A stretch of DNA of 20,000 nt from sequence record DRR723986_8380; one strand, written 5' to 3'. The notes under the pieces were generated by a model. That model was not told the origin of the DNA. It did no database searches and worked only from the letters and a program-made list of their open reading frames with translations. This document shows positions 1,835-4,694 of the stretch, one piece after another (position 1 is the first letter of the stretch; each line of letters begins with the position of its first letter). The position numbers and the translations under genes are program-made.

Positions 1835-2362
1835 ATGAAATTACTCGGAATAGGATCAAGAATCAACCATGCAGACTACGGCAAGGGAGTTATAACCAAT
1901 GTCACTTCAAAACACTACTGGGTGACCTTTATAGACCAAGGCTTAGAAACCATAGAACTCGACTCAGAATTTGAGGTTATAGAAGCAGCCGAAGATGATG
2001 TGGATACTGTTAGCTTTTATGAGGTTGAAAAAAGCCTTAGAGACATCCTTAAAAAATGGTCTGATGCCAGTGAAGTCATTACCATAGCAGACAAATGGAA
2101 AGGTGGCAAACTGATCTTAGAACCAGGTGATACCAATCTGCAAGGTAAAGAGCTACCAATTGATACCTTCTTTCATAAGATTACTATGGTGCGTGATCGT
2201 TTACGTGTTATGGAGCAAAAGATCAACTCTAGTAAAAACCTGGATGAGCAAGAGAAAATAGACTTGCAGCAATACATTACACGTAGTTATGGTAGTTTAA
2301 CAAGTTTTAATGTGTTGTTTAAATTAAAGAGCCAGCAGTTTGTAGGGCAGAGTTCGAAGTAG
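1835..2362 (+). CDS. Hypothetical protein (175 aa) with a possible N-terminal SH3/Tudor-like domain
   Basis: The track start at 1751 is probably too early. ATG 1835 has an A-rich leader and a TATACTTG -7-like element at 1801-1808. N-terminus LGIGSRINHADYGKGVITNV; C-terminus looks helical. Confidence 0.8.
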   Translation: MKLLGIGSRINHADYGKGVITNVTSKHYWVTFIDQGLETIELDSEFEVIEAAEDDVDTVSFYEVEKSLRDILKKWSDASEVITIADKWKGGKLILEPGDTNLQGKELPIDTFFHKITMVRDRLRVMEQKINSSKNLDEQEKIDLQQYITRSYGSLTSFNVLFKLKSQQFVGQSSK

Positions 2363-2371
2363 AAATTGAAC

Positions 2372-2403
2372 TGTCATTGCGAGGACGTAGGACGATGCAA
2401 TCT
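2372..2403 (+). repeat. YGTCA-tagged palindromic repeat, unit A
   Basis: TGTCATTGCGAGGACGTAGGACGATGCAATCT; stem ATTGC/GCAAT. Confidence 0.85.
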
Positions 2404-2429
2404 ATTGATTGGTAACGGAAACGAGAAAC

Positions 2430-2457
2430 AGACTGCCGCGCTGCGCTCGCAGTAACG
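2430..2457 (-). repeat. YGTCA-tagged palindromic repeat, unit B
   Basis: Minus strand CGTTACTGCGAGCGCAGCGCGGCAGTCT; stem ACTGC/GCAGT; 24/28 identical to unit G (3767-3794). Confidence 0.85.
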
Positions 2458-2493
2458 ATTCAAATTTCATACTTCGCCATAACCTTACTATAT

Positions 2494-2501
2494 TAGTTTT
2501 G
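2494..2501 (+). promoter_or_regulatory. -7 promoter element for the GIY-YIG gene
   Basis: TAGTTTTG matches TAnnTTTG and ends 5 nt before ATG 2507. Confidence 0.5.
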
Positions 2502-2506
2502 CGTTA

Positions 2507-2803
2507 ATGAAACCAGGTTATACATATATTCTAACAAATCGAACGAATACTACTTTATATATCGGTGTAACTTCTAATCTAAATAAGCGTGTACTGCAGC
2601 ATAAAGAAAAGAAATACCCGAAGTCATTTAGTGCGCGTTACAATTTAGATAAATTAGTGTATTATGAAGCCTTTCAAATGATTGGTGATGCGATTGTAAG
2701 AGAAAAGCAGCTTAAAGCTGGTAGTAGAGCACAAAAACTAAAACTTATTGAAAATTTCAATCCTGAATGGGCGGACTTATATGATGGTTTGGTTTTGGAT
2801 TAA
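2507..2803 (+). CDS. Stand-alone GIY-YIG nuclease (98 aa), probable Ssn-like family
   Basis: GYTYIL...LYIGVT motifs, conserved R28, H32 and E66 (REKQLK), and C-terminal LIENFNPEWADLY typical of small stand-alone GIY-YIG proteins. Flanked by palindromic repeats. Confidence 0.92.
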   Translation: MKPGYTYILTNRTNTTLYIGVTSNLNKRVLQHKEKKYPKSFSARYNLDKLVYYEAFQMIGDAIVREKQLKAGSRAQKLKLIENFNPEWADLYDGLVLD

Positions 2804-2804
2804 T

Positions 2805-2831
2805 GAGACTGCTTCGTGCCTCGCAGTGACG
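2805..2831 (-). repeat. YGTCA-tagged palindromic repeat, unit C
   Basis: Minus strand CGTCACTGCGAGGCACGAAGCAGTCTC; 2801-2831 is 29/31 identical to 3724-3754. Confidence 0.88.
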
Positions 2832-2835
2832 TTAG

Positions 2836-2860
2836 TTTTGCTTCCTTCCCAGCGATGACG
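2836..2860 (-). repeat. Degenerate YGTCA-tagged repeat, unit D
   Basis: Minus strand CGTCATCGCTGGGAAGGAAGCAAAA keeps the CGTCAT tag and GAAGCAA end; abuts the stop codon at 2861-2863. Confidence 0.6.
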
Positions 2861-3592
2861 TTAAAACGATAAGCCTTTAACCTCTCCCATATCTAAGTCT
2901 AAAACCAATAACTTATGTGTTGTGGGTAAAAGGGCGCCACTTTCTGTAGTTATCCAATTATCCCAAGTGGCTTCTAAACCATCAATAGGTAATATATCTA
3001 CCCACATTTGGTAGCTTTTAGGTTTCCCAGTATCATCTAAGTGCCATAAATAAGAATCTCCTGGTGTGGTGCCACCAGATGTGTAGGTCACTAATAGAGC
3101 GTCTTTGCCGTCTTCGGTTTTTACCAAACGACGTTCTGTGTCTTGGTCAAACACCTTATAAGGTGCAACTAACCAAAAGGAATCGTTGTTAAAATAGCTT
3201 TCGGCTTTATGGATATACTCATGTTTTTGTTCACCGTTGTATTCCTGTTCACCAGCAAATACTTTAGATTTATCATGATTGTTGAGATCTAAAATGACGG
3301 TCATGTTATCCCATGATACTTCACAGGATTTTTCAGACTTATACCATTTATAATGATGTACACCTTTAAATGTCCATTCTATATACTCCGTATTTAGATA
3401 AGCCTCTTCATTCAAGGCTTGCAACATTTGTGTCGCCAATTGGTCGGCTTGTGGTCCTTTTTGACCTTCCGGAAGGTCTTCATTGTATTTAAGGTAGAGA
3501 AATCCGAAAAGTAAAAGGGTAGGAAGTGTAAAGAAGATGATGAGTCCTCCGATGATTTTTAGTATGCGCTTAGGTGTGAATTTTTTTGCCAA
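2861..3592 (-). CDS. Hypothetical membrane-anchored protein (243 aa)
   Basis: TTG start with TATTTTTG -7 element at 3613-3620 on the minus strand. N-terminal hydrophobic segment, then motifs FNNDSFWLVAPYK and GGTTPGDSYLW. Function not recognised. Confidence 0.85.
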   Translation of the reverse strand: MAKKFTPKRILKIIGGLIIFFTLPTLLLFGFLYLKYNEDLPEGQKGPQADQLATQMLQALNEEAYLNTEYIEWTFKGVHHYKWYKSEKSCEVSWDNMTVILDLNNHDKSKVFAGEQEYNGEQKHEYIHKAESYFNNDSFWLVAPYKVFDQDTERRLVKTEDGKDALLVTYTSGGTTPGDSYLWHLDDTGKPKSYQMWVDILPIDGLEATWDNWITTESGALLPTTHKLLVLDLDMGEVKGLSF

Positions 3593-3666
3593 TGATAGAA
3601 GTGTTCTTTTTTCAAAAATAATAAATTAATAACTGTGATTGCGCCTATACTACACATCAAACGTAA

Positions 3667-3706
3667 TGTCATTGCGAGAAGTGAGGTACGAACGACGAAG
3701 CAATCT
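3667..3706 (+). repeat. YGTCA-tagged palindromic repeat, unit E (long loop)
   Basis: TGTCATTGCGAGAAGTGAGGTACGAACGACGAAGCAATCT. Confidence 0.88.
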
Positions 3707-3727
3707 TATAAATTAATCCATAATAAT

Positions 3728-3754
3728 GAGACTGCTTCGTTCCTCGTAGTGACG
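3728..3754 (-). repeat. YGTCA-tagged palindromic repeat, unit F
   Basis: Minus strand CGTCACTACGAGGAACGAAGCAGTCTC; near copy of unit C. Confidence 0.85.
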
Positions 3755-3765
3755 ATTGAAACAAA

Positions 3766-3794
3766 GAGATTGCCGCGCTGCGCTCGCAATGACA
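3766..3794 (-). repeat. YGTCA-tagged palindromic repeat, unit G
   Basis: Minus strand TGTCATTGCGAGCGCAGCGCGGCAATCTC; abuts the stop codon at 3795-3797. Confidence 0.9.
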
Positions 3795-4694
3795 TTAATT
3801 ATGGAGTTTTTCTTTTATTGCTTTCGCCAAAACATGTGCAGCTTCAGGATAGTTTCTAAACCAAAGTTCTGGTTCAATAAGTTCTAGTTCTGCTAGTGCA
3901 ATCTTACCGTTGTTATCATTAAAAATATCTACTCTAGCATATAAAGGCATTTCGTCACAGGCATTAACACAATTAATAGCGAATTGTATTTCTTCTGCAG
4001 TAGATGTGTAGTCGTGCACTGAGCCGCCAAAGTCGTCTTGCACTCTAAAGTCTCCAGCTTTGGCTTTTTTTAAAATGGCATGCGTATACTGACCGTTAAA
4101 TACCATCATGGAAACTTCTCCTTCTGACACAATTTTATGTTGAAAAGGTTGTAACATCATGGCTTCTTTAGCAATTAAGTTCTTAAAAATAGCTTCATGT
4201 TCTGCTATATTAGATGCATTCAGTCTAAAGGTATGCCTGGCACTACCAGAGATACAAGGTTTTAAAACAGTCTCTTGCCAACCTGTTTTAGCATGTAATT
4301 CTGCTAATGTTTTAGTTTCACCAGTTTCAATAAAATAGGTTTCAGCGATATGAACACCATTATCCTGAAGGTCTTGTAAATAGTGTTTATCAATATTCCA
4401 GCGAATAATAGCTTCAGAATTTATAAGTGTCGTAACTTTAGATACAGCATTTAACCATTTGGAAAATGCTTCAAAATCATCAAAATAATCCCAAGTGGTT
4501 CTAAATAGAATGGCTTTAGTACTAGCCCAATCAAAATGTGGATCACTCCATGCTAACCGTATAACATTAAGACCTAATTTTTCAAGAGTGTTTGCAACGA
4601 GTGCATCTTCAGTGATAACGTTTTTTACATAGTCATCAACGATTGTAGGGTAGGCGTGTTTTTGGTCAGTGAGAATGACGACGTCGTATTTCAT
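3795..4694 (-). CDS. ATP-grasp fold protein (RimK/glutathione synthetase-like)
   Basis: Motifs WNIDKHYL, VLKPCISGSA, MMLQPF, GDFRVQDDFGG, LYARVD and ELELIEP are typical of RimK-like ATP-grasp ligases. Confidence 0.85.
   Translation of the reverse strand: MKYDVVILTDQKHAYPTIVDDYVKNVITEDALVANTLEKLGLNVIRLAWSDPHFDWASTKAILFRTTWDYFDDFEAFSKWLNAVSKVTTLINSEAIIRWNIDKHYLQDLQDNGVHIAETYFIETGETKTLAELHAKTGWQETVLKPCISGSARHTFRLNASNIAEHEAIFKNLIAKEAMMLQPFQHKIVSEGEVSMMVFNGQYTHAILKKAKAGDFRVQDDFGGSVHDYTSTAEEIQFAINCVNACDEMPLYARVDIFNDNNGKIALAELELIEPELWFRNYPEAAHVLAKAIKEKLHN

Follow-up and report, generated by a model that had tools for sequence, protein, structure and literature searches.

Cassettes in which an ssn gene, encoding a small GIY-YIG nuclease, lies between repeats have been described across phyla, and the same authors raised the analogy to RAYT transposases and their repetitive extragenic palindromes (REPs) (Chenal et al. 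2025, PMC11893778). In Neisseria, SsnA cuts single-stranded DNA (ssDNA) and lowers the integration of repeat-bearing transforming DNA (PMC11893778). A second group of elements, the CGTC-tagged REPs, was reported without a dedicated transposase (Di Nocera et al. 2013, PMC3733652). Here we analysed 20,000 nucleotides of sequence record DRR723986_8380 (the whole stretch is hereafter called the window), in which a GIY-YIG nuclease gene is surrounded by tagged hairpin repeats. A sequence-only reading had proposed a candidate nuclease-repeat system and had stated that CGTC REPs lack a transposase and that SsnA cuts ssDNA. Both papers bear out these statements, and the published cassettes and RAYT/REP analogy precede the proposal. 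The window locus is therefore not a new kind of system; it represents a subgroup of Ssn whose probable target, bulged and modular, falls outside the repeat motif (SRM) as published. The Ssn family, described in 2025, is thereby extended to a large subgroup whose target the published pattern does not see.

According to the passages of Chenal et al., Ssn enzymes and their NTS/SRM repeats (SsnA, CDD cd10448) have in common with the window locus a single domain of ~95 aa with conserved catalytic Y/Y/E, oriented YGTC-tagged hairpins on the flanks of the gene, with an A-T first pair and a terminal C, and further repeats dispersed over the genome. The published stem, however, is a perfect one of 8-9 bp, whereas the window unit combines a 5-bp arm, a GA/GNR internal loop and an inner hairpin. 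The CGTC REP families CGTC-1 to -4 share the CGTC/TGTC tag, A-T first pairs, a short tail and inverted dimers; they too lie downstream of genes without a transposase, and their hosts include Gramella forsetii (Bacteroidetes) (PMC3733652). The window unit does not fit the 8-9-bp stem and 4-5-nt loop given in the text of that paper, although the odd-loop Bradyrhizobium CGTC-1 repeats may be of the window type. RAYT-REP/REPIN systems (REPtrons) show the same layout, with a small enzyme gene between tagged hairpins and gene-less inverted doublets elsewhere. RAYT is a HUH/Y1 transposase that uses GTAG tags and a covalent intermediate, in contrast to the hydrolytic GIY-YIG enzyme and YGTY tags of the window, and the combination of HUH/Y1 transposase and GTAG tag that marks a REPtron is not present here.

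The nuclease gene and the seven units around it, A to G, are as follows.

2372..2403, plus strand: unit A, the left outer unit; TGTC tag, ATTGC arm, GA, inner hairpin G-GA-C[GTA]G-GA-C, GAT, GCAAT arm, CT
2430..2457, minus strand: unit B; CGTT tag, ACTGC/GCAGT arms (a compensatory variant), inner GC[GCA]GC
2507..2803, plus strand: Ssn-family single-domain GIY-YIG nuclease gene, KxG[SN]R subgroup (R65-E-K-Q-L-K-A-G-S-R74), assigned by PF01541, N. gonorrhoeae alignment and AF2 model
2806..2831, minus strand: unit C; CGTC tag, ACTGC/GCAGT arms, inner G[GCA]C
2839..2860, minus strand: unit D, degenerate, ATCGC-type, without 3' arm; its tag abuts the TAA of the 243-aa neighbour gene
3667..3706, plus strand: unit E, with a long nested inner hairpin G-AA-GT-GA-G[GTA]C-GA-AC-GA-C
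3729..3754, minus strand: unit F, with one arm mismatch; a near copy of C
3767..3794, minus strand: unit G, a near copy of B; its tag abuts the TAA of an ATP-grasp gene

All seven units of the sequence-only reading were located, six of them full and YGTY-tagged, while D turned out to be decayed; the relative L123 has an intact ATCGC-type unit at the same position. Units A and B form an inverted doublet, with the tag of A facing away from the nuclease gene, and the tail of unit C lies 2 nt past the nuclease stop codon. The similarity of C to F (94%) and of B to G (87%), each over 31 nt, includes their flanks, which points to local copying. With up to one mismatch, the 12-nt head YGTCAYTGCGAG has six matches in the window, all at units, against 0.12 expected, and none of 200 shuffled sequences reached six. 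A gapped pattern of the full unit recovered the same six matches and no other in the 20 kb, in agreement with the claim that no full unit lies elsewhere in the window. By comparison, the published SRM pattern has no exact match in the window, and one of the seven units matches it with one mismatch. Units B and G score terminator-like, and an Rfam search of the units gave no match up to E 1. As had also been claimed, no transposase family was found among the 19 window open reading frames scanned with Pfam (23 were listed).

The 98-aa product of the nuclease gene matches PF01541 with E 3.6e-15 over residues 4-78 in the Pfam scan, and it is a single-domain GIY-YIG protein below the limit of 150 aa set for Ssn. 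The catalytic residues R28, H32 and E66, which the sequence-only reading took to be intact, are present together with Y7 and Y18, and all are invariant across a 38-row alignment. A tblastn search of a plasmid collection with the window nuclease returned 33 records, one of which is from Neisseria gonorrhoeae; because the 3.3-kb locus of this record holds 10 NTS copies, we take its protein to be ssnA. The two proteins are 46.9% identical over 96 columns, with 94 of 94 Neisseria residues aligned, at an E of 7e-27 pairwise and 5e-18 in the plasmid-collection search. These values lie within the homology limits of the published survey (>75% of SsnA length, E < 1e-10), here applied to the NTS-flanked gonococcal protein as a stand-in for CAX49033.1. 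Y7, Y18 and E66 align with SsnA Y6, Y17 and E64, the mutation of which abolished cleavage (Chenal et al. 2025, PMC11893778). Judged by its sequence, the window nuclease is an Ssn (SsnA) homologue, and the suspected kinship is borne out. The motif K-K-W-N-R of SsnA reads K-A-G-S-R in the window protein. An AF2 model is a single domain (pLDDT 94), and its best fold matches are UPF0213 and Slx1 GIY-YIG domains; the sequence likeness to UPF0213 is negligible (E 0.56). A sequence search of the PDB gave no significant match, an NCBIfam scan gave a sub-threshold match to an intron endonuclease only, and a PADLOC scan gave none. A strain variant (G>A at window position 2633, in one contig) alters nuclease codon 43, which is nearly invariant in the 38-row alignment. 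RNA contigs reach only the end of the gene and are uninformative on its expression.

The physical pairing of unit and gene was examined in the best 80 of 484 homologue loci from GTDB genomes, using a pattern built from the window units. Matches numbered 146 in 47 kb at less than 300 bp from the homologues, while the bins at 0.3-1, 1-2.5 and 2.5-5 kb had 19, 29 and 11 matches in 105, 215 and 326 kb, respectively; a unit lies within 300 bp in 68 of the 80 loci and on both sides in 37. The enrichment near homologues that had been predicted is thus found. Because the distant bins are mostly coding DNA, other intergenic flanks served as controls. Around the left neighbour of the window cassette, a 175-aa gene, no unit matched in 30 family-level loci, and around the right neighbour any unit was seen in 6 of 30 genus-level loci. 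The 48 nucleases of KxWxR type described below, none of which has a unit, served as a further control.

Why was this pairing not reported before? The published SRM, HGTCWYN(0-2)YYVSBRHN(0-5)WNVSBRGN(0-2)RNCYNB, has no exact match in the 80 homologue loci, whereas an identical search recovers it from 6 of 10 plasmid-collection loci. Six Flavobacteriaceae species with close homologues have 0-4 SRM, near shuffled levels, in Supp. Data 4 of Chenal et al. (PMC11893778); our pattern, applied to five of them, recovers 3-26 units. Membership in Ssn calls for cd10448 as the top CDD match with a score > 100; of the six species, with homologues of 71-75% identity, the same table scores five YES at genome level, by which a paralogue may be meant. 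As the SRM misses the bulged unit, the published survey could not see this gene-repeat pairing, and Ssn-repeat pairing is commoner than reported.

The proposal that the system has its own target in Bacteroidota proved too narrow, and the repeat is not confined to that phylum. A Novosphingobium megaplasmid carries 43 copies of the same unit, predominantly as inverted doublets, and that record yielded no nuclease homologue. The unit also flanks a KAGSR-type gene at locus L215, in a genome drawn from the phylum of G252, whose record is labelled Clostridiales. One scan of viral contigs gave seven pattern matches and no nuclease homologue. Mixed doublets with an ATTCAGA-type unit were observed as well (loose ends at window 2372/2407 in runs X6 and X14; L253, 426-492).

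The unit is described from 328 examples, chosen for their complementary arms, at 78 of 90 loci. Its layout is YGTY tag, 5-bp arm, GA, variable inner hairpin, GNR, arm and CT. The arms read ATTGC/GCAAT in 286 of the 328, and the other 42 carry matched changes on both sides, e.g. ATTAC/GTAAT (20) and ACTGC/GCAGT (13); these counts are circular since a complementary arm was the selection criterion, but the inner part was not selected on. Among 176 distinct inner sequences, some long ones of which are overlapping matches and which come in part from related, non-independent loci, 162 are closed by a Watson-Crick pair, against a mean of 43 and a maximum of 58 over 500 shuffles; 42 have a terminal GNA triloop (shuffled 0.7) and 37 contain nested GA/GA steps (shuffled 0.6). 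The variable loop in the consensus of the sequence-only reading is thus a second, inner hairpin. GNA triloops are DNA-type motifs and form particularly stable structures in DNA. Strong stacking in DNA is described for tandem GA/AG steps (PMC8163305). The closure of the inner hairpin and the excess of GNA and GA/GA point to a unit selected as a folded single strand, most simply as ssDNA. ViennaRNA does not score G.A steps and accordingly predicted little or no structure for units D, E and F; the parsing of inner hairpins was used as the test. The units retain features relevant to SsnA, namely the tag 5' of the stem, the A-T first pair and the C after the palindrome, although these are required by the search pattern and hence describe the enriched unit rather than provide a separate test. 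The 5' flanks of the tags are weakly conserved overall; a conserved TTGAAC was suspected there but is present in three loci only. A stop codon on the same strand lies within 60 nt of 62 tags, and 18 of these, those of D and G included, stand at -1 to +2 of it.

Does the unit follow the KxG[SN]R motif? From 182 loci processed, after two duplicates had been left out, 179 usable proteins remained (three were short or gave no match). A unit is nearby in 92 of 118 KxG[SN]R proteins (the window included), in none of 48 KxWxR proteins (within 260 bp) and in 1 of 13 unclassified ones. The SRM shows a different distribution, flanking 0/118, 5/48 and 1/13, respectively, and other paralogues are flanked by other tagged hairpins, perfect or bulged. 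In a quick tree (179 rows, 95 columns) with few resolved forks, the window and Neisseria proteins fall on one 168-row branch (SH-aLRT 89), outside which two long-frame outgroups are placed. The K-motif is clustered in this tree, with 4 changes against 50.5 in shuffled data, but the tree does not show KxG[SN]R as a single clade. In three KxWxR loci, L085 (Planktothrix plasmid), L088 (Spirosoma plasmid) and L255, the flanking hairpins are GA-bulged with other arms (ATTCT, ATCCC), which indicates that the bulged design is wider than the KxG[SN]R subgroup.

We consider it likely, by analogy with SsnA, that the gene encodes an Ssn-family site-specific ssDNA endonuclease whose cognate motif is the repeat unit, a bulged form of the NTS/SRM hairpin. 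Its homology at family level, its catalytic residues, the physical pairing with the units and the patchy, insertion-like distribution described below are observed directly. The Neisseria SsnA work suggests how such an enzyme might bind and cut, and what the biological effect may be. When the DNA becomes single-stranded during replication, conjugation or DNA uptake, the tagged strand would fold into the 5-bp stem, GA/GNR internal loop and inner hairpin. The enzyme would then read the YGTY tag, the stem and the C behind it, and would place a Mg2+-dependent nick a few bases 5' of the tag. Incoming repeat-bearing ssDNA would be trimmed and recombination near repeats stimulated by the nick, and both effects could keep gene and repeats together as a small selfish cassette. 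This gives a concrete target structure and a candidate specificity motif (KxGSR vs KxWxR), and a tolerated variable inner hairpin would suit ssDNA tools.

Several results weigh against this assignment. Neither the window units nor the 80 homologue loci contain an exact SRM, and 26 of the 118 KxG[SN]R genes have no unit by the window-unit pattern. The motif of SsnA is KxWxR, the four enzymes assayed in the passages of Chenal et al. include no member of the KxG[SN]R subgroup, and with the change to KxGSR in the window protein specificity or chemistry may differ. The pairing of protein type and repeat amounts to two independent pairs (sign test p 0.5) in about one clade, an association that falls short of demonstrating co-evolution. 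Among 85 genomes in which the gene was not seen, seven have at least 10 units and one has 40. Five of these seven were searched again, and their best matches are distant paralogues; in G181, the genome with 40 copies, a decayed gene close to repeats is of KxWxR type and so does not rescue strict coupling. Finally, the single-strand fold could also play a role in RNA.

Could the enzyme also mobilise its repeats? Such a role, which would add to that of a site-specific endonuclease, is possible though we hold it to be somewhat less probable than not: the gene with outward-tagged units would be autonomous, gene-less inverted doublets would be its non-autonomous copies, nicks 5' of the tags would start copying into new sites, and host repair would join the ends. 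The evidence lies in the surroundings of the cassette, which is bordered by two conserved host genes.

1835..2362, plus strand: conserved 175-aa host gene without Pfam family, left of the cassette
2861..3592, minus strand: conserved 243-aa host gene without Pfam family, right of the cassette and beside the 175-aa gene in relatives

Neither gene has a Pfam, NCBIfam or PADLOC family; the two are adjacent in many Flavobacteriaceae, and their closest relatives are in genomes of the genus to which Winogradskyella sediminis belongs. The empty sites expected in relatives are found, since the nuclease gene is absent from all 30 genus-level loci of the right neighbour; 22 of these hold both neighbours, with a gap of 8-158 bp between them in 20. 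Within 97 genomes of the genus, a homologue of at least 63% identity occurs in 10, two of them with a stop codon, and at several different sites. Among homologues in general, 73 loci with both neighbours represent 58 distinct contexts. In 46 of 51 loci the outermost downstream unit has its tag facing outward, and in 22 of 37 loci both outer units do. One junction, between an Lhr helicase and a phosphoesterase gene, is empty in L252, holds a hairpin remnant alone in one genome, carries KxGSR cassettes in L157, L158 and L160, and in L250 carries a KxWxR gene in opposite orientation with another repeat type. The three KxGSR cassettes share one orientation relative to the operon. The position of 18 of 62 tags at stop codons is also in keeping with insertion. 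Moreover, the unit count per genome has a median of 6.5 with the gene (n=12) and of 2 where it was not seen (n=85; p 0.002), the 12 genomes being those recognised among the 30 best loci; two of the 12 genomes score 0 units by the pattern.

Other results speak against mobilisation. GIY-YIG enzymes hydrolyse DNA without a covalent intermediate, and for this reason the strand-joining step is unexplained. There is no target duplication at the window cassette, and no joint skipping it was seen in 4 of the 22 listed sequencing runs. The closest GTDB homologue among the 484 loci is just 74-78% identical, which gives no sign of recent spread, and the outer tags have the same orientation in 13 of 37 loci. 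The patchiness is also explained by gain through homologous recombination and frequent loss, and the genomes in the comparison of unit counts are not independent.

The gap at 3593-3797, which holds units E to G, is a hotspot for tagged hairpins. By eye, it is hairpin-free in ~6 of 17 relatives and filled in ~11, the fillers (among L121-L150) being of at least three tagged hairpin types that differ by species, with tags mostly close behind the ATP-grasp stop codon. For 24 genomes among G001 and G156-G190, 144 units are listed, and 30 of them fall within 50 kb of the orthologue of 2861-3592, against ~3% expected; in G183, G194 and G197 the nuclease gene is found at other sites, 3-22 kb from this orthologue. 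These positions suggest a neighbourhood of long standing in which units spread locally, some of them being shared by descent.

A broader form of mobilisation, on which we place slightly less weight, is that Ssn enzymes are the missing mobilisers of the CGTC REPs, each subgroup with its own hairpin code. The KxG[SN]R enzymes would read a modular hairpin, in which tag, arm and GA/GNR loop are fixed and an inner cargo of ~5-30 nt is free, and would spread the cassette and doublets by a nick-driven GIY-YIG transposition into sites just behind stop codons. If true, this would be a class of mobile element without a HUH, DDE or recombinase enzyme. With sites that are filled, empty or replaced at hand, how CGTC REPs are spread becomes a question amenable to testing.

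That the protein binds hairpins mainly for defence, as an accessory ssDNA restriction function beside restriction-modification systems, appears improbable. Cassettes recur directly upstream of hsdR in type I restriction-modification operons (L151, L152, L154, L156), a Planktothrix homologue lies between an MmeI-type gene and drmA, and SsnA, in the passages of Chenal et al., lowers transformation by repeat-bearing DNA. The window neighbours, however, are housekeeping genes without a PADLOC match, the host's own repeat is a poor target against foreign DNA, and the viral-contig scan gave no homologue. The hsdR site is also occupied in L013, L018 and L051, and in several of the hsdR-site loci the nuclease stop overlaps the hsdR start and the downstream unit is absent.

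We give very little credence to the view that the units function as RNA, as REP-like terminators or stabilisers of mRNA accumulating in intergenic gaps, next to which a general structure-specific repair enzyme of Slx1/UPF0213 type lies by history alone, as the position just after stop codons, the terminator-like scores of B and G, the fold matches to UPF0213 and Slx1 and the persistence of units in genomes where no gene was found are outweighed by the E of 0.56 to UPF0213 against 7e-27 to the Neisseria protein, by an enrichment specific to one Ssn subgroup (92/118 vs 0/48) over 58 contexts, by the lack of an Rfam match, and by triloops of DNA type.

The literature covered holds no description of a bulged unit beside a GIY-YIG gene, although figures, subscription papers and patents, which lay outside it, may show one. 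ATTGCGA/GCAATC is absent from the text of 14 Chenal supplements and ATTGCGAG/CTCGCAAT from four Di Nocera supplements, and literature matches for GTCATTGCGAG/CTCGCAATGAC are unrelated, as judged by title and abstract. A further likeness is to the palindromic elements (RPE) of Rickettsia. RPE-7 is presumably of the same TTGCGAG type, and an overlap with the window unit may exist. RPE-4, -6 and -7 share ATGAC, the reverse of GTCAT, with the unit, and at a given site one repeat type can take the place of another, as in the gap 3593-3797; unlike the window units, RPE often lie inside genes (PMC3767692).

Another group of cassettes was noted by eye in L162-L180, where KxWxR paralogues of the same genus occupy several junctions of an apparent phenylacetate-type operon. 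Their flanking hairpins have no GTC tag and run from the upstream stop codon to within a few bases of the start codon that follows. In L168 and L178, a direct duplication of ~110 bp, part of which is a hairpin fused with the beginning of the host gene downstream, lies on either side of the cassette and may be the trace of an insertion by recombination.

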